A stretch of DNA of 64,000 bases from Candidatus Alloenteromonas pullistercoris (lineage in GTDB: Bacteria; Bacillota_I; Bacilli_A; RFN20; CAG-826), in assembly GCA_017694295.1 (NCBI GenBank), contig JADINA010000007.1, positions 5,754 to 69,753 of the forward strand, read 5' to 3'. The notes beneath the pieces were generated by a model. The model saw nothing but the letters and a program-made list of their open reading frames with translations. It was not told the origin of the DNA and did no database searches. Of this stretch, positions 23,558 to 30,734 are shown piece after piece; the first letter of the stretch is position 1, and the number at the start of each line of letters is the position of its first letter. Position numbers and translations under genes: made by a program.

Positions 23558-23639
23558 ATCCCCGAGGAAAGAGACAAAGTAAATAGGAAGGCATTTCGAA
23601 TTGTTGAAAAACGCCGATCAGATCTTGATATAATCCGGT

Positions 23640-24944
23640 TTGTTGATTATGGAAAGCAAACCAAAGGCGAAAAACAGGCGGGCCAAGCAGCTGCCACGCG
23701 CGATTGAGCTATTTGCCGGAGTAGGCGGCTTTCGGGTCGGCTTAAACCGCATTCGCTCCCTTGAGAACACGCTAAGAGAGAGAGAGAGAGAGAGATTTAA
23801 TTTCGTCTTCGCCAACCAATTTGAGCCGTCGACCAAAAGGCAAGACGCCTTCATCTGCTACCAAACCCATTTCCCCGACGGCGAGAACTCAAACCTCGAC
23901 ATCGCCAAAGTCGACAAAGCGTCAATCCCCGATTTCGACTTGCTGACGGCCGGCTTCCCCTGCCAAGACTATTCGGTCGCCAGAAGCCTGGCCAACGAGA
24001 AAGGAATCGAGGGGAAGAAAGGCGTCCTTTGGTGGGAGATAAACGATATCCTGCTGACCAAGAAGCCGAAGTTCGCCCTTTTGGAAAACGTCGACCGCCT
24101 CATTAAGGCCCCCTCTAAGCAAAGGGGCCGCGATTTCGGAATTATCCTCCATTGCCTAAACCAAGCCGGATACGGGGTTTTGTATAAGGTGATCAACGCC
24201 GCCGATTACGGTTTCCCTCAAAGGAGGCGTCGCGTTTACATATTCGCCTTCCGCCTCGACACCGCCTATGGGAAAAAGATGTCCTCGATTCCGGCTAAGC
24301 AAGCCATCGAGGAAAAGGGGATATTCGGCAAGAAGTTCCCAATAAAGCCCGAAGGGAAACTCAAGGAAGCTGACTTGACTGCCTATGGTGGTCTATTGGC
24401 TTTGCAAGAGGGGTTCGCGTTTCGCTTCGAGGATGCGGGGATGATGGCAAATGGCCATATATATACGGAAAAGACGACGCCGATTCAGGAAAAGCCGATT
24501 GCCCTTGGGGAGATTCTCGAAGACCTCGTTGATGACCAAAGTCTTTTCCTAAACGAAAGGCAAATCAGAAAATTCGCTTACCTTAAAGGGGCAAAGAAAA
24601 TAAGGCGAAAGGCGAAAAACGGTCATGAATACGTCTATTCGGAAGGGCCGATCGCCAACCCGGACTACCTCGACCGCCCATCGCGGACGATGCTGACAAG
24701 CGAAGGGACCATAAACCGCTCAACCCACGTCGTCCTCGATAAGCAGACGGGAAGGCCCCGCTTGCTTAGCCCGCGGGAATGCGAACGGCTCAACACCTTC
24801 CCCGACGACTGGACCGCGACCATGCCGAAAAATCGCCGCTACTTCATGATGGGCAACGCTTTGGTATGCGGGCTTATAGAGAGAATCGGCGATGAGATAG
24901 AGCTCATTTTCAAGGAGGAGGGGAAAGATGGAACGGGGGATTGA
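23640..24944 (+). CDS. DNA (cytosine-5)-methyltransferase (type II R-M M subunit)
   Basis: Motif I FAGVGGF, motif IV GFPCQDYS, motif VI ENV, motif X-like MGNALV; contains an in-frame (AG)10 tract. Confidence 0.85.
   Translation: MLIMESKPKAKNRRAKQLPRAIELFAGVGGFRVGLNRIRSLENTLRERERERFNFVFANQFEPSTKRQDAFICYQTHFPDGENSNLDIAKVDKASIPDFDLLTAGFPCQDYSVARSLANEKGIEGKKGVLWWEINDILLTKKPKFALLENVDRLIKAPSKQRGRDFGIILHCLNQAGYGVLYKVINAADYGFPQRRRRVYIFAFRLDTAYGKKMSSIPAKQAIEEKGIFGKKFPIKPEGKLKEADLTAYGGLLALQEGFAFRFEDAGMMANGHIYTEKTTPIQEKPIALGEILEDLVDDQSLFLNERQIRKFAYLKGAKKIRRKAKNGHEYVYSEGPIANPDYLDRPSRTMLTSEGTINRSTHVVLDKQTGRPRLLSPRECERLNTFPDDWTATMPKNRRYFMMGNALVCGLIERIGDEIELIFKEEGKDGTGD
23775..23795. repeat. (AG)10A dinucleotide simple-sequence repeat inside the C5-methyltransferase ORF
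   Basis: agagagagagagagagagaga read in frame as RERERER between MTase motifs I and IV. Confidence 0.9.
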
Positions 24945-25602
24945 GGAGATACTCGCTTACCTCAACGGTTTTGCCGGGAAAAGCATCGAAGAGCTCTTTT
25001 CCTACGTCAATCTGGCCACAAAGGCAAAAAACAGGAACCGAATGCTGGCCGAAAAGCTTTTGGAAGCCTATTTGGGACATGGATTTTCGGTTTCAAATGC
25101 CCCATGGCAGTTAAAAACGATAAGGCTAGACAAAAACAACCGGCCCAAGGAATCTTGCGCCTTCCCGACCTTCCGCTGCGCCGATATTGCGAATAACGAC
25201 TTCGCCCATTCGGAAATCAGGAAAACCCTCGATGGGGATTTCCTTTTCTTCGCCACCAAAGATAGCGGGCGCGAGGTATTCGTCGGCGCTTTCATCTACC
25301 GCCTCCCGAAAGCCTACTTGGACGGGGAGGTAAAGGAGGTTTACGAGAAAACCCGGAAGGTCATTCGAAGCGGGGACGTAGTCAAATGCCGAAAGGACAA
25401 CCGCCTCATCCTCAACTTCCCGCGCGAAAGCGAGCAGCGGATCGCCCATGTCCGCCCCCATGGCCGCAACCAATTCGACGTCGACCATTTGCCGGTAAGG
25501 GACATCAAAACCGGCATAACCGACATACCAAAGCATTGCTTTTGGCTTAACAAAGGCTTCATCGAGGAAATCGCAAAAGCCAATCTAAATTTGGAGGCAT
25601 GA
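24928..25602 (+). CDS. MutH/Sau3AI-family endonuclease-like protein (probable cognate REase of the C5 MTase)
   Basis: 224 aa (MutH is 229 aa); C-terminal RIAHVRPHGRNQFD...CFWLNKGFIEEIA resembles MutH LQIRPKAANAKA...GFYLKKNFTSALL; central QLKT where MutH has ELKT; 17-nt overlap with the MTase gene. Confidence 0.55.
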   Translation: MERGIEEILAYLNGFAGKSIEELFSYVNLATKAKNRNRMLAEKLLEAYLGHGFSVSNAPWQLKTIRLDKNNRPKESCAFPTFRCADIANNDFAHSEIRKTLDGDFLFFATKDSGREVFVGAFIYRLPKAYLDGEVKEVYEKTRKVIRSGDVVKCRKDNRLILNFPRESEQRIAHVRPHGRNQFDVDHLPVRDIKTGITDIPKHCFWLNKGFIEEIAKANLNLEA

Positions 25603-25608
25603 TATACA

Positions 25609-26838
25609 ATGATTGACGTCAATTCCGGGCTATTCAAAAAAGGGATAAAGAAAAGGCTACCCCTAAATGGGAGAACCGAGGAAGTAGATACGTATCTCAT
25701 TCCCGTTGAGAAGCTATTCTTCAATGACTTGAATTCCCGCATCGCCACCTATTCGGAAAGCTACAGAAAAGAATACGGGGAGTCGCTTTCCTCACTTTTG
25801 GGAAGGGACAAGGAGAGATACAACGACGTCGTATCCGGCTACATAAAGGAATCCGCGGCCGACGGGGGCGCCTCCTTCCGCGCCACCAAGGAAGACATAA
25901 GGGAAAAAGGGCAAAGGGAGCCCGGCGTCATCCTTACAGACGGGAGGATAGTCGACGGCAACCGCCGCTTCACCTGCATTAGGGAGCTGTTCAAGGAAAC
26001 CGGGAAGGCGGACTTCGGATATTTCGAAGCCGCCGTGCTGGACGCAAGCAAGGTCGACGCCAAGACAATCAAGCGGCTTGAGTTAGCCCTCACCTTCATC
26101 GATCCCCCGAAGGAATACAACAAGGTCGAGCAATGCGCCGGCTTTTACCTTGACGTCATGAAAAACCACATCATCTCCGAAGCCGAATACCAGTATGCCA
26201 CCAACCGCACCGACCCCGAGATGAAAAATCTAAAGAACCTCGTCGAGACGATGCTTGAATACCTAACCTGGCTTAATCAGCCGGAGGCCTTTTACATTAT
26301 TAAGCAAAACCGCCTCGACGGTCCTTTCGAGGAGCTTTACAAATTTAGGTCAAGTATCGGGTCAAACGCCTGGAACGAGAAGAAATTCGCCTTCTTCTCA
26401 TATCTCAAATTCCACAGTAAAGGGGACACGACCAGGGAAATGCGCGAGCTAATAAAATCCGCCAAGGATAGCGGGACGTTATTCAATCGGGTTGAAAAAA
26501 CCGCCAAGGAGAAAAGGGCGGATATCATAAACGCCATTTCGGGAATCGGGGAAAAAGACGAAACCAGGAAAAGGGAAACGCAAAGGATAAGCGACGCCAT
26601 CGTCGCAGACATTAAGAAGTCTTTCGACGCCGGATCGATGGTCGAGAAGCAGGAGAAAACCGCGCTTGAACCGCTTCAGGCAATCGAAAACAGCCGCAAA
26701 AGCCTGCATAAAATCAATACAGCCGCCGTTTCCAGCTTAGATGAGCAAACCAAGGAAAAAGCCCGCAAAGAGCTTTTGGAATTGGAGAAAGTACTGCAAA
26801 AGGTCAAAGATGCCTTCGCTTCGGGAACTGACGCTTAA
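25609..26838 (+). CDS. ParB/Srx-domain (ParB-like nuclease/NTPase N-terminal domain) protein
   Basis: GQREPGVILTDGRIVDGNRRFTCIRE resembles the ParB GERRxRA box; the remaining ~270 aa are alpha-helical with no recognised domain. Confidence 0.55.
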   Translation: MIDVNSGLFKKGIKKRLPLNGRTEEVDTYLIPVEKLFFNDLNSRIATYSESYRKEYGESLSSLLGRDKERYNDVVSGYIKESAADGGASFRATKEDIREKGQREPGVILTDGRIVDGNRRFTCIRELFKETGKADFGYFEAAVLDASKVDAKTIKRLELALTFIDPPKEYNKVEQCAGFYLDVMKNHIISEAEYQYATNRTDPEMKNLKNLVETMLEYLTWLNQPEAFYIIKQNRLDGPFEELYKFRSSIGSNAWNEKKFAFFSYLKFHSKGDTTREMRELIKSAKDSGTLFNRVEKTAKEKRADIINAISGIGEKDETRKRETQRISDAIVADIKKSFDAGSMVEKQEKTALEPLQAIENSRKSLHKINTAAVSSLDEQTKEKARKELLELEKVLQKVKDAFASGTDA

Positions 26839-29413
26839 AGCGACATACGACCCGGCAAGAGACGGGCAAAACACGGTGGATGGTTTTCTTCTGCCCTGCC
26901 TAAAGCGCTCCGTTTCCTATGACCGCCTAAGCGCCTATTTCTCCTCAGCCGCCTTAAAGGTCGCCTCCAAAGGGATAAAGGAGCTAATTGGCAACGGCGG
27001 AAAGATCCGCTTCATCTTCTCCTCGCAGATCGAGGAAAGCGAGATGCGGCAAATCCGCGAGGCCTACCATCGCAAAATGGACGGGATGGCCGAAGAACTA
27101 AAAAACGATCCTTCGCTAAACGACGACTTTGAGGTCGCCAACCTCTCCTATCTTATCGAGTCTGGGCTCGCGGAAGTCAAAATAGCCTTCATGCTCAACA
27201 CCGCCTCCTCCATCTGCCATACGAAACTTGGGGTTTTCAAAGACAATTGTGGCGGCATCATCGCCTTCACCGGATCCGGAAACGAAACCGAGGCCGGTTT
27301 GCTGCGCAATGCCGAGATCTTCTCCGTCTTCAACAACTTCGAAGGCGTTGACCCACACCTTGAAGACGCCGTGAGGATGTTCGAAAGCATATGGGACAAC
27401 ACCTATAGCCCCGCCACCATGGTGGCAGTCTACCCGGATGGCAGATTATTCGACACGTTGATGTCTTATTCCAGGCACCGGGTTGTCGAATCGGAGGAAG
27501 ATTTATGCGAGCAAGACGACTCAGTGCTCATAGACGTCGACAAAGGGAGGGTGCTATTGACCGATAGAACGTCAAGGCGGCAATTGCGGATAAGCGCCGT
27601 TCTTTCCTCCTACTTATCCCATTTCGAGGCCGTTGGGCCCGATGCGTATGACTGCGGGAAGGCGAACGCGCATCTTATCCGCGACGTCATAATCGGAAAT
27701 CTAAAAGACTCAGGCGTCAACTTCCATCTAAGCCTGCGGGCAAGGCTGTTCCTCGAACAATACGATTACAAGTTAAGGCAGCGTGTCAAGTTGGCCTCAG
27801 CCATCAAATCCAATCAAGGGCAAGACCTTTGGCTAAGGCAATACATTGACTTTAAAGAAATCGTCAACAGCAGAACTTCGCCAAAATATCCACTTAAAGA
27901 AAGGCAAATGCATAACGCCTTCTTCCATTCCGTCATGAAAAGCTCGGCGGACTTCTCGGTTCCGGGAACCGGCAAAACCTTCATTTCCTATGGCCTATAC
28001 GCATATTTGCAACATTGCCGTCTAGCCAATCGAATCGTCGTATTCGGCCCTCTCAATTGCTTTTTGGCTTGGAAGGAGGAAGCAAACAAAATATACGAGG
28101 GTAAGCAAACCCTCTCCTTCTTCGACATCAGCGAACACCAAGCCAACTGGCAAAACGAGATTAAGCAAAGGGTATGCGACTGCTATCTGTTCAATTACGA
28201 ATGGCTAAATAGTCCTGCTAAATGTGAGCTTCTCTCCAAATATGTCCTAACCAAGAGAACCCTTTTGGTATTTGACGAAATCCATAAGCTAAAGGCCATC
28301 GACGGTTTTCGATCGAATATGTTTCTAAGTTTCCTCAAGGAAGTAGATGATCCGCCGATATATCGATTGGCTCTTACCGGTACCCCATTGCCGAATTCCT
28401 ACTCCGATCTCTCCAATTGCCTAAACTACCTTTTCCCTGATGACATGGAAGGCGATTTGGCCGGCCTCTCGCCCCTTTCGCTTAAGCAGGCCGACAAAGA
28501 CGGGGAGGCTGCAACCAAGGTTCGGGAAGCCTTATATCCTTTATTTGTCAGGACGACGAAATCCGATCTTCGCGTCCCGCCTCCTGAGCCCGATGATTGC
28601 AACTCCCTTTCCTGCGTCCCAAGCGGAAAGGAGGCAAACCTATATAAGGCCATTTGGAATAGCGGACTTGACCCGCTCGCCAAATACATCCGTCTCATCC
28701 AGGCGAGTTCGAATCCGCCTTTGCTTAAGAAATCCTTATCCCTCGACGACTTCTCGGGGATAGTCGATGACCCGCTCGAAATCAACTTTTCCGAGCTTGA
28801 GGCCAAATCGGAAATAGCCGAAATAGCCTCCGCCATCCCGTTATCCGGCAAAATGCGAAAGACGATCGACTTCCTCGTTTCCGAAATTGGCATCGGGAAA
28901 AAGATAATCGTTTGGTGCCTGTTCATCGATACGATTGATCTGGCGGCAAGGCTATTGCGGGAAAGGGGAATAGAGGCAATCACCATCTGCGGCCGCGACA
29001 CTCAGGCGGATAGACAAGCAAAAATCAACCGATTCAAGCATGGCGGGCCGATGGTTTTGCTCACCAACCCAAACACACTGGCGGAGTCGGTATCCCTCCA
29101 TACCGTCTGCCACGAGGCGGTCTATCTCGAATACGGCTTCAACCTTACCTACCTCCTTCAATCCAAAGACCGCATAAACAGGGTCGGTTTGAAAGACGGG
29201 GAAAAGACCTTCTATTATTTCGCCATCTCCGGAAAGAGGGAATGCGGCGCCGCGTCGCTGGATGCCTTCATTCTCAAACGTCTAAAGGAGAAGGAAATCC
29301 GCATGCTAAGCGCCATCGAATCCGATGACCTGCCCGCCCCGGTCAACATGCCATCCGATATCGATGACATCAAGCGGATCATCGCCGATTACCAATCGGC
29401 TTTGGAAAAATAG
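26810..29413 (+). CDS. PLD-family nuclease / SNF2-family helicase fusion protein
   Basis: Start re-assigned to ATG 26810 (MPSLRELTLK). Single HKD motif HTKLGVFKDNCGGIIAFTGSGNETEAG. Walker A VPGTGKTFIS. Motif II VFDEIHKLK. SNF2 motif III LALTGTPLPNSYSDLSNCLNYLF. Helicase-C motifs (LLTNPNTLAESVSLH...QSKDRINRVG). Confidence 0.75.
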   Translation: MPSLRELTLKATYDPARDGQNTVDGFLLPCLKRSVSYDRLSAYFSSAALKVASKGIKELIGNGGKIRFIFSSQIEESEMRQIREAYHRKMDGMAEELKNDPSLNDDFEVANLSYLIESGLAEVKIAFMLNTASSICHTKLGVFKDNCGGIIAFTGSGNETEAGLLRNAEIFSVFNNFEGVDPHLEDAVRMFESIWDNTYSPATMVAVYPDGRLFDTLMSYSRHRVVESEEDLCEQDDSVLIDVDKGRVLLTDRTSRRQLRISAVLSSYLSHFEAVGPDAYDCGKANAHLIRDVIIGNLKDSGVNFHLSLRARLFLEQYDYKLRQRVKLASAIKSNQGQDLWLRQYIDFKEIVNSRTSPKYPLKERQMHNAFFHSVMKSSADFSVPGTGKTFISYGLYAYLQHCRLANRIVVFGPLNCFLAWKEEANKIYEGKQTLSFFDISEHQANWQNEIKQRVCDCYLFNYEWLNSPAKCELLSKYVLTKRTLLVFDEIHKLKAIDGFRSNMFLSFLKEVDDPPIYRLALTGTPLPNSYSDLSNCLNYLFPDDMEGDLAGLSPLSLKQADKDGEAATKVREALYPLFVRTTKSDLRVPPPEPDDCNSLSCVPSGKEANLYKAIWNSGLDPLAKYIRLIQASSNPPLLKKSLSLDDFSGIVDDPLEINFSELEAKSEIAEIASAIPLSGKMRKTIDFLVSEIGIGKKIIVWCLFIDTIDLAARLLRERGIEAITICGRDTQADRQAKINRFKHGGPMVLLTNPNTLAESVSLHTVCHEAVYLEYGFNLTYLLQSKDRINRVGLKDGEKTFYYFAISGKRECGAASLDAFILKRLKEKEIRMLSAIESDDLPAPVNMPSDIDDIKRIIADYQSALEK

Positions 29414-29495
29414 GCATCGCCTCTGCAAAACGGGACAGGCCAGGTTGTCAACCGATAAGAGGGGTTTTATAATTATTCCAAGGAGGTTTCCGAAA

Positions 29496-30734
29496 ATGGA
29501 AGCTCAGGAAAACAAACGACTTTGCCCCAACTGCAACGCCGAATGCGGTTTAGACGCCGCCTTTTGTCCTAGTTGCGGCGCCCGGATCGATGGGATGAGG
29601 GTGTGCCGCAAATGCAAGAAGAAGACCCCGGAGGGAAGCGAATACTGCATCCATTGCGGAGCCAAAAAGGAAAGCGGCGCGGAAAAGAAGGAAAAAGCCG
29701 CCGCAAGGCTAAGTGCCGTTTCCTCTTTACTCGCGCTCATCTCCGCCTTCTCCTCGATCATCTTCGCCTTCTTCATCGGCGCCGACCAATTAATCGAAAG
29801 CGAATCCTCCACCTCGCAAATAGCCATCTGCGACCTCTATTTCTTCTTCGGCGAGGCCTATGAGTCGATGGCCGCATCAGACAAGTTTGCGATTGGCCTA
29901 GGCACGGCCATCTCCGCCTTGACGTTATTGGGAATCGCGGCAATCGCCGTTTATCTATGCAAAACCCTGCTCGATTGGCTGAATAAAAAGGAGACGAACT
30001 TCCTTAAGCCCGCAATATGGGCCTATGTCTTCTACGGCGCCGCGATGACGCTATTCATGTGGCTGATCGGCCAAAGTGTCTATGATGATGGCATGACCGC
30101 TCTTTTGATCCCCAGCGGCCCAAGCATCGCCGGGCTCGCCATCGCCGGGGTATCGCTATTGGCCTCGCTTGCCTGCTTTAAGGCCAAGGAGGCATTGGAA
30201 ATCGGGGTGGGGTCAATGTTGCGCCATCTTATCCCCGCGCTCTTACTTTGCGTCGCCTTGTTCGCTCCCCTATTCATCTTCTCCAGCGGATTGTGCAAAG
30301 TCAGCCTAGACAGCGGCAGCGTCGCCGAAGGCGGCTTTGCCGCCATTTGGGGGGATGTCGCGATCTTCGAAGGGCGAAGAGGCTACGAGACCGCCTATTG
30401 GACTTCGGTGGCCTTGGTTTCGCTTTTAATACCTTTGCTTCTCGCTTACCTCGTCTTATGCGGGTATATAGCCGGAAGGCTCTTCTTCGATGATGGCCTT
30501 GCGGGCAAGACCCCCTATTTCGGCTTTGCCGCCGCCAGCGTCTTAGCCGCCTACGCCGTCGTTAACATCGTCTTCGTCTCCGTGCCCTACTCCTACTTCG
30601 CGGACGAGGCGCCCATCTTCACCTATATAAACCAAATCGGGTTGTTGGTGCTTTCTGCCATCATCGCCGCCATAAACGCCCTTCCCCTGATTCGGGGCAA
30701 AATAAAAGGCGAAAAGGCGGCTGATTTGCAATAA
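29496..30734 (+). CDS. Double zinc-ribbon (DZR) N-terminal domain fused to a polytopic (~8 TM) membrane protein
   Basis: Start re-assigned to ATG 29496 with AGGAGG RBS (ORF-track start 29325 overlaps the upstream gene). CPNCNAECG...CPSCGA...CRKC...CIHCGA, then multiple hydrophobic helices. Confidence 0.6.
   Translation: MEAQENKRLCPNCNAECGLDAAFCPSCGARIDGMRVCRKCKKKTPEGSEYCIHCGAKKESGAEKKEKAAARLSAVSSLLALISAFSSIIFAFFIGADQLIESESSTSQIAICDLYFFFGEAYESMAASDKFAIGLGTAISALTLLGIAAIAVYLCKTLLDWLNKKETNFLKPAIWAYVFYGAAMTLFMWLIGQSVYDDGMTALLIPSGPSIAGLAIAGVSLLASLACFKAKEALEIGVGSMLRHLIPALLLCVALFAPLFIFSSGLCKVSLDSGSVAEGGFAAIWGDVAIFEGRRGYETAYWTSVALVSLLIPLLLAYLVLCGYIAGRLFFDDGLAGKTPYFGFAAASVLAAYAVVNIVFVSVPYSYFADEAPIFTYINQIGLLVLSAIIAAINALPLIRGKIKGEKAADLQ

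Follow-up and report, generated by a model that had tools for sequence, protein, structure and literature searches.

A candidate NTP-dependent restriction-modification-like system with a ParB-fold protein and a PLD-SNF2 motor in Candidatus Alloenteromonas pullistercoris

The four-gene locus

The 64,000-nucleotide (nt) stretch of Candidatus Alloenteromonas pullistercoris DNA analyzed here (hereafter the window; GenBank assembly GCA_017694295.1, contig JADINA010000007.1, positions 5,754 to 69,753 of the forward strand) carries four closely packed genes, which encode a C5-cytosine DNA methyltransferase (MTase), a 224-residue homolog of the C-terminal domain of Sau3AI (the reader), a ParB/Srx-fold protein (A) and a fusion of a PLD nuclease domain to an SNF2-family ATPase (B). 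A preliminary description, made from the sequence, had treated A and B as a two-gene defense module beside an independent restriction-modification (R-M) system. We propose instead that the MTase, the reader, A and B would make up a single operon-encoded, nucleoside triphosphate (NTP)-dependent R-M-like defense system, a proposal that we hold with roughly even confidence, and that this system belongs to an apparently unnamed modular family. Neither A nor c2, a further protein typical of that family, has a model in PADLOC 2.0. The features of the locus, in window coordinates, are as follows.

23640..24944, plus strand, C5-cytosine DNA MTase gene (434 residues from TTG 23640, or 431 residues from ATG 23649)
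24928..25602, plus strand, gene for the 224-residue Sau3AI C-domain homolog (the reader, R*), predicted to be nuclease-dead
25609..26838, plus strand, gene A, ParB/Srx-fold protein of 409 residues
26810..29413, plus strand, gene B, PLD-SNF2 protein of 867 residues
23604..23634, plus strand, putative promoter before the MTase gene, read from the sequence (TTGAAA-19 nt-TGaTATAAT, extended -10)

The region from 23640 to 29413 looks like a four-gene operon, because its gene junctions are tight, a single promoter-like site lies upstream and the next gene has a promoter of its own. The MTase and reader genes overlap by 17 nt, a 6-nt gap separates the reader gene from gene A, and genes A and B overlap by 29 nt. 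A strong AGGAGG ribosome-binding site precedes the 224-residue open reading frame (ORF), and a Shine-Dalgarno sequence is also found ahead of gene A. The upstream promoter-like site was missed by a consensus promoter scan because of its 19-nt spacer. Two GATC sites (23616-23619 and 23621-23624) are located inside this spacer, and it is possible that the operon promoter is autoregulated through methylation or reader binding at these sites. The gene downstream of B (29496-30734) encodes a double zinc-ribbon, multi-pass membrane protein; its own promoter lies at 29445-29473 and agrees with the consensus at 11/12 positions, and the gene is not conserved beside A and B in other loci. A terminator scan of the window returned nothing beyond background.

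The A-SNF2 pair and its modular family

Protein A consists of an N-terminal domain with the ParB/Srx alpha+beta fold, followed by a long helical domain that forms a distinct C-terminal part of ~250 residues. The N-terminal domain is of the nucleotide-binding type, with N39/N42/R44 and G112-R113..D116-G-N-R-R120 (25954-25968). Residues G112, R113, D116, G117, N118, R119 and R120 are invariant across 33 homologs, and the GR..DGNRR motif is invariant among the 670 A homologs that we found. Judged by its position in the fold, this conserved arginine motif (GxxRxxA / DGxxR type) would be the equivalent of ParB box II. The fold and the motif bear out the earlier assignment of the 409-residue protein to the ParB/Srx type. 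Searches of Pfam (even at E <= 10), NCBIfam, PADLOC, PHROGs and PDB sequences gave no match to A, and the curated ParB-type profiles (Pfam ParBc, DUF262, DndB) do not recognize it; A therefore represents a distinct, unmodelled family inside the ParB/Srx superfamily.

Protein B divides into three parts.

26810..27514, plus strand, N-terminal single-HKD PLD nuclease domain (residues 1-~235), with H137 at 27218-27220, K139 at 27224-27226 and GSGN at 27272-27283
27515..27934, plus strand, middle alpha/beta domain of unassigned function (residues ~236-375), without a family match and folded in the model
27935..29413, plus strand, SNF2-family ATPase motor (residues ~376-867), matching SNF2-rel_dom, ResIII and Helicase_C

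The N-terminal domain is recognized by the Pfam profile PLDc_2 (27.8 bits against a cutoff of 27), and in 51 homologs the HKD residues H137, K139, G155, S156 and N158 are invariant, with D145 nearly so. It is the only nuclease domain encoded in the operon. The motor matches PF00176 and PF00271 and carries motifs I (GTGKT, 27965-27979), II (DEIH, 28274-28285), III (TGTP) and VI (QSKDRINRVG, 29159-29188). When 51-86 full-length homologs were aligned for the HKD and SNF2 motifs, GxGKT, DEIH, TGTP and QxxDRxxRxG proved invariant. The predicted structure of B (predicted local distance difference test, pLDDT, 84.6) ends in SNF2 lobe 2 plus helices, and its top Foldseek matches are SMARCAD1, SNF2h, ISW1, CSB and INO80 (E ~1e-20), with ZorD ranking lower (E 1.6e-18). 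The middle region varies between clades and is detected by tblastn only in the clade to which the window belongs, which comprises loci with an MTase and a short reader (window-type loci). Profile matches and conserved motifs thus confirm the reading of the 867-residue protein as a single-HKD PLD nuclease joined to a complete SNF2 ATPase. In L001/L002 (9214-11897), B is split into ORFs of 498/499 and 344 residues; this split is likely a frameshift, and the module may be inactivated in that strain.

We collected 80 genome loci with A homologs, plus other contexts. An SNF2 gene follows A directly in 80 of the 83 loci that extend at least 2 kb downstream of A, and the two genes overlap or abut in all loci for which exact coordinates were read (9/9). 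The earlier suggestion that A and B act as a unit, drawn from their 29-nt overlap, is supported by this almost constant co-occurrence in other genomes, which is not that of a chance neighborhood. The SNF2 gene includes a PLD domain in 38 of the 80 loci, and in the other 42 it is shorter and PLD-less (618-652 residues). The pair occurs in Bacillota, Coriobacteriia, Spirochaetes, Endomicrobia and others, the A-SNF2 arrangement is also present on 52 Enterococcus plasmids, and relatives were found in 308 GTDB genome stretches.

In most loci, A is directly preceded by c2, a DNA-binding protein of ~900 residues. It contains two helix-hairpin-helix (HhH) domains resembling the C-terminal domain of the RNA polymerase alpha subunit (alpha-CTD), one sigma-70 region-4 helix-turn-helix (HTH) domain and an uncharacterized C-terminal part of ~550 residues; against PADLOC, it yielded only short HhH/HTH-level matches to PglW and MzaA. 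In the window clade, c2 is replaced by the C5-MTase and the 224-residue, predicted nuclease-dead Sau3AI C-domain protein. What had been described as a two-gene module beside an independent R-M system is hence usually a triad with c2 and, in the window clade, a set that includes MTase and reader.

Several variants of this arrangement were observed. Inside BREX loci, c2 and A form a dyad without SNF2, in the orders PglZ-DUF2130-c2-A-BrxL and BrxL-AAA/trypsin-c2-A (L136/L137, 5048-9686; L138/L139, 4636-9644). Some A homologs carry an N-terminal HEPN_Swt1 (HEPN RNase) domain. One of them, P0106 (GCA_016648615.1; 581 residues), is followed by c2 (1057 residues) and then by a 168-residue HIRAN protein. 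We considered and rejected the idea that PLD-less SNF2 proteins pair with an A bearing a C-terminal HEPN domain; HEPN_Swt1 is N-terminal, and the one context examined has no SNF2. In Collinsella (L064, 3150-14880, and similar loci), a short c2, A and SNF2 are flanked by a set of Type IIG-like MTase/helicase genes and by a GmrSD Type IV enzyme. These loci encode a normal A of 403 residues and a 650-residue SNF2 protein without PLD, and they contain no recognizable nuclease domain.

A and SNF2 apparently make up the invariant core of an as yet unnamed modular family whose recognition partner and nuclease vary. Recognition might be provided by c2, by Sau3AI-c2 fusions or by a stand-alone reader, and cleavage by a fused PLD domain, by a separate HNH protein or by no recognizable nuclease. 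Literature searches for ParB+SNF2+PLD, for the HEPN/HIRAN variants and for the Enterococcus triad accessions retrieved no description of this gene set.

The surroundings of A-B loci are defense-like and include R-M, GmrSD and BREX genes, plasmids and recombinases; in the window, the genes form a low-GC island (GC content 0.51, against 0.57 in the flanks). Modularity, nuclease domains and neighbors of this kind would be the signature of a conflict system. A role outside immunity, in plasmid maintenance or partition, anti-restriction or DNA processing, would also account for c2-A-SNF2 triads on 66 mostly conjugative or mobilizable plasmids and for the annotation of one A homolog by NCBI as ParB/RepB/Spo0J; ParB and SNF2 domains are hubs in the polyvalent proteins of mobile elements (PMC5512222). 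We nevertheless consider such a role improbable. In the window, the locus lies on the chromosome, flanked by tyrS/GrpB and by membrane-protein/groEL genes; it lacks a ParA partner, and no plasmid or phage genes surround it. Its flanks are housekeeping in nature (rpsD, tyrS, GrpB, CBS-domain proteins, groEL). The PLD, HNH and HEPN nuclease domains of the family, together with its R-M, BREX and GmrSD neighbors, point to conflict systems, and a search of 50,697 phage records gave only 4 weak matches. PHROGs returned generic helicase matches only.

The methyltransferase, the reader and their linkage to A and B

The MTase matches PF00145 (E 1.8e-66) and PADLOC MTase_II (E 5.5e-157). Over its full length, including the variable region, it is 49-58% identical to MTases encoded beside full-length Sau3AI-like genes (L013, L029, L044 and L084), and it probably targets GATC, like M.Sau3AI-type enzymes. 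The window is poor in this site, with 271 occurrences against 394 +/- 19 expected from dinucleotide-preserving shuffles, every one of which contained more; this lends weak and indirect support to a GATC-directed system.

The 224-residue protein covers only positions 245-474 of 475 in the Sau3AI profile NF040973 and positions 268-521 of 527 in PADLOC REase_II. Among PDB entries, it matches 2REU, the Sau3AI C-domain (E 8.6e-12), and full-length 4PXG only over residues 323-458. It comprises one domain, and not the two MutH-like domains of a Sau3AI-type enzyme. We aligned it with MutH, in which the catalytic residues are D70, E77 and K79, and with the N- and C-terminal halves of full-length Sau3AI-like proteins encoded in related loci. 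The N-halves of these relatives retain the D...E-x-K catalytic triad. Their C-halves, the short readers and the reader-c2 fusions described below (c23 proteins) retain only the catalytic Lys. In the window reader, A-P-W-Q61-L-K63 (Q61-L-K63 at 25108-25116) stands at MutH E77-L-K79; the residue at the E77 position is thus Q here, and other short forms have W, V, I, H, T or S there. Conservation is likewise lacking at the D70 position. In addition, the reader residues R176-P-H178 (25453-25461) are invariant and, together with the invariant E75...F79, align to MutH R184-P-K186 and E91...F94. These MutH residues read GATC, which we take as a lead only.

The C-domain of Sau3AI is described as a non-catalytic, GATC-sensing effector (bioRxiv 10.64898/2026.04.21.719898). 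Because the catalytic Asp/Glu are absent and the match is limited to this non-catalytic domain, we read the 224-residue protein as a GATC reader. It is probably not a nuclease, and the earlier view of it as the restriction endonuclease (REase) partner of the MTase is not supported.

Homologs of the reader were collected with a pattern scan of metagenomes and a full HMMER search, after a word-indexed search had returned just 3. Besides the window, a short reader is present in 14 genome or assembly loci (L001, L002, L005-L012, L019, L020, L076 and L142), and A is found in 14/14. The closest metagenome relatives, retrieved with a query consisting of the reader only (L085-L091), likewise have A in 7/7. 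The SNF2 gene is present in short-reader loci wherever the contig extends, in two gene orders; in L141, which is too short to show A, the reader is immediately preceded by the SNF2 gene. Distant matches beyond these are classical two-domain Sau3AI and MTase pairs without A or B.

Four further observations tie the reader to A and B. First, the gene order in L142 is A, a short SNF2, the reader and an HNH protein, with the MTase alongside; the reader therefore sits inside the module, and a separate HNH protein takes the place of the fused PLD domain of the window. Second, c23 proteins join a reader domain (E 1e-21) to the last ~260 residues of c2 (E 1e-30), and in L016 a full-length, catalytically intact Sau3AI is fused to the c2 core (E 1e-110 and E 3e-41); both kinds of fusion are encoded immediately before A-B, and a member of the same MTase family is found close by. 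Third, the window-type loci group into a single deep clade in a neighbor-joining tree of A; L076 alone branches just outside it, and the neighbors of this clade are Sau3AI- and c23-linked loci. Fourth, A diverges to ~36% identity within the clade, and the four-gene order is retained.

These data bear directly on a more conventional explanation, in which a Type II R-M pair, composed of the MTase and a small homodimeric GATC endonuclease, happens to adjoin an independent A-B module in a defense island. We regard this explanation as unlikely. Against it stand the absence of the catalytic Asp/Glu from the 224-residue protein and its correspondence to the non-catalytic Sau3AI domain, the fusions to c2, the reader between SNF2 and HNH genes in L142, the synteny over such divergence, and the presence of A and/or SNF2 beside close short reader homologs in every locus examined. 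The explanation would fit the absence of any MTase from most A-B loci, the full-length Sau3AI R-M pairs that adjoin c2-A-B in several loci and the frequent clustering of defense genes, of which GmrSD and the Type IIG-like enzyme flanking the Collinsella loci are an example.

The MTase gene is present in every window-type locus. Its retention beside a reader predicted to be nuclease-dead makes sense if another product of the operon restricts unmethylated DNA, and the HKD domain of B is the sole nuclease domain available. The preliminary description had suggested either NTP-dependent restriction or abortive infection, and the evidence favors the former, in the shape of a four-gene R-M-like system. 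In an infection-triggered abortive or toxic module of A and B, with or without c2, A would sense a phage cue or NTP signal and free PLD-SNF2 to act on any DNA, with MTase and reader unrelated or regulatory. We think this quite unlikely here. The invariable presence of the MTase in the same predicted operon of the window clade fits self-protection from a sequence-directed nuclease, and the reader is by homology a sequence-specific DNA binder. An abortive mechanism would suit the many loci without an MTase and the A proteins that begin with a HEPN RNase domain, which is a typical suicide effector; more speculatively, the alpha-CTD-like and sigma region-4-like domains of c2 might serve as decoys for phage proteins. 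We do not favor the abortive reading for the MTase-linked version.

In L012, L019 and L020, the assembly shows the MTase gene with its 5' part inverted. The segment that contains it is flanked by 25-nt inverted repeats and measures 368 nt or 889 nt (L019, 8027-8444; L020, 6262-6679; L012, 7708-8646). A tyrosine recombinase gene lies directly upstream in L019 and L020 and just downstream of B in L012. This arrangement suggests a phase-variable on/off switch of the whole unit. The window contains no such 25-nt inverted repeats.

Several points weigh against a single four-gene system. The MTase linkage that the preliminary description had asked about is complete among window-type loci and does not extend to the family as a whole: in ~70% of A-B loci, an MTase and a Sau3AI-like gene are both absent, and the core can therefore do without methylation-based discrimination. 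The C-terminal module of c2, otherwise a constant neighbor of A, is missing from window-type loci, and the reader would have to couple to A and B without it. Distant marine stand-alone short readers (246-248 residues), which lie beside a NurA-like gene and a sub-threshold GIY-YIG candidate, have no A or B nearby, and the short form is therefore not exclusive to the A-B system. Full-length, presumably active Sau3AI genes beside c2-A-B (L013, L029, L044, L084 and L097) would fit a habitual defense-island neighborhood equally well. The GATC specificity of both MTase and reader is predicted from homology, and catalysis by the reader could in principle be restored by an acidic residue at another position, such as the invariant E75.

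MutH/Sau3AI-type modules were also encountered in other, unusual protein contexts. P0289 (630 residues) is a full Sau3AI-like protein fused to a C-terminal S24 (LexA-like) peptidase, and P0297 (494 residues) is a reader domain fused to a C-terminal HNH nuclease. A marine contig (L123, 534-4511) encodes a C5-MTase, a 312-residue protein with a sub-threshold GIY-YIG match (E 0.019), a stand-alone, Sau3AI-C-like reader of 248 residues predicted to be dead, and a NurA-like protein. The reader domain apparently has other nuclease partners as well.

Proposed mechanism and comparison with known systems

Domain content, gene layout, synteny and the conservation of catalytic and ATPase motifs are direct results of the sequence comparison, and the mechanism built on them is a proposal. 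In the system that we propose, the C5-MTase would mark and protect GATC sites of the host, and the reader, judged by its homology, would act as the specificity subunit that binds unmethylated GATC on incoming DNA. B could then translocate on double-stranded DNA by means of its SNF2 ATPase and cut with its HKD domain. Because each B protein has one HKD motif, a dimer would be needed to form the active site; two B molecules would have to meet, and cleavage would follow dimerization or collision, as in other ATP-dependent restriction enzymes, a reading based on PLD-family precedent. The least certain step concerns A, which might couple DNA recognition to the motor as an NTP-binding switch or adaptor, a role suggested by strict synteny. 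Alternatively, A could be a regulator akin to DndB, or a DNase or nickase under NTP control. ParB/Srx-type domains in defense systems are NTPases, NTP-regulated DNases or regulators (PMC5512222, PMC10853773).

The broader interpretation is more tentative, and we place it somewhat short of even confidence. It holds that a ParB/Srx NTPase and an SNF2 motor form the core of a widespread, unnamed modular defense family with swappable recognition and nuclease modules, including HEPN on A, and that the window represents a new ATP-dependent R-M type in which a fossilized REase effector domain serves as the specificity subunit. This would be the first ParB-type nucleotide switch that licenses a restriction motor. 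Nucleotide switches with a ParB fold are known from chromosome segregation and from KorB-type clamps, and we know of no ATP-dependent restriction enzyme with a ParB-fold subunit.

If true, a Type II restriction enzyme would have been dismantled, with its catalytic domain lost and its allosteric, GATC-sensing domain put to new use as the specificity subunit of a PLD/SNF2 machine driven by ATP, and ParB-fold nucleotide switches would gain a role in licensing a restriction motor. The analysis also flags an unannotated three- or four-gene family with copies on Enterococcus plasmids and in BREX loci. In gut Bacillota and enterococcal plasmids, these loci probably act as barriers to DNA transfer, and PADLOC 2.0 does not see them.

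Membership in known systems was judged against PADLOC-DB 2.0 (2023), Pfam and NCBIfam profiles. No system in PADLOC-DB 2.0 matches both A and B, and A and its Paenibacillus homolog are unmatched. B shows weak, partial PADLOC matches to DrmD, BrxHII, ZorD and DpdE. We rejected it as a member of Pbe, DISARM, Zorya (ZorD), Dpd or SauUSI, since the matches are partial and at the domain level and the partner genes are absent. The earlier placement of A and B outside SauUSI and DISARM is therefore upheld: the defining domains and partners are missing, and none of the named systems tested matches both proteins. Like the ParB/Srx conflict-system proteins DndB, DpdB, GmrS/DUF262 and Osa, A combines the ParB/Srx fold with a conserved arginine-containing motif, but it matches none of their Pfam, NCBIfam or PADLOC profiles and has its own helical C-domain and its own partners.

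The Type IV enzyme SauUSI resembles B in having a single-HKD PLD nuclease domain N-terminal to an ATP-dependent motor, and it needs a dimer for cleavage (PMC7913695). In contrast to SauUSI, B lacks a DUF3427/SRA-like reader and its motor is of the SNF2 type. The linkage of the system to an MTase also implies that unmodified, rather than modified, DNA is targeted. An HKD nuclease with a SWI2/SNF2 motor is likewise the effector of two MTase-linked systems, DISARM (DrmC + DrmD) and the Type-2 BREX-related (BR) systems; in the latter, it occurs with DUF499, a DUF1156 MTase and DUF3780 (PMC12839542). DUF499, DUF1156 and DUF3780 are absent from the operon and its flanks. As for the DISARM core (DrmA + DrmB), we found no DUF1998 and no DrmB match, and DrmA and DrmD match only weakly and in part, within the C-terminal lobe (E 3e-3 to 5e-6). 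Unlike the MTases of these systems, the one in the window is a small C5 enzyme, and a ParB-like protein and a MutH-like reader stand in place of their partners.

The best PADLOC match of B is PbeA of PbeABCD (E 3.5e-54), which also has an N-terminal HKD endonuclease and an SF2 helicase; this architecture, the CxC ABC ATPase PbeC and the DndE-like PbeD are defined in PMC10853773. However, B matches only profile positions 1-208 of 672, the HKD part, and its helicase belongs to a different family. PbeC, PbeD and the small PbeB were not found among the six neighboring genes. With respect to Sau3AI/MutH, the 224-residue protein is homologous to the Sau3AI C-terminal effector domain and the MTase belongs to the family found beside full-length Sau3AI-like genes, but the protein has neither the catalytic N-domain nor the catalytic D/E and cannot be classed as a Sau3AI-type REase.

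The nearest functional analogy is offered by CglI and NgoAVII (M + R + H/N subunits), which have in common with the window system a C5-MTase, a PLD-family nuclease, a DNA-recognition domain and an SF2 motor. In these enzymes, ATP hydrolysis by the SF2 helicase-like motor, whether separate or attached, is needed for cleavage (PMC4267653, PMC4267654, PMC5737866, PMC5861437). Compared with them, the window system draws on different protein families and is wired differently.

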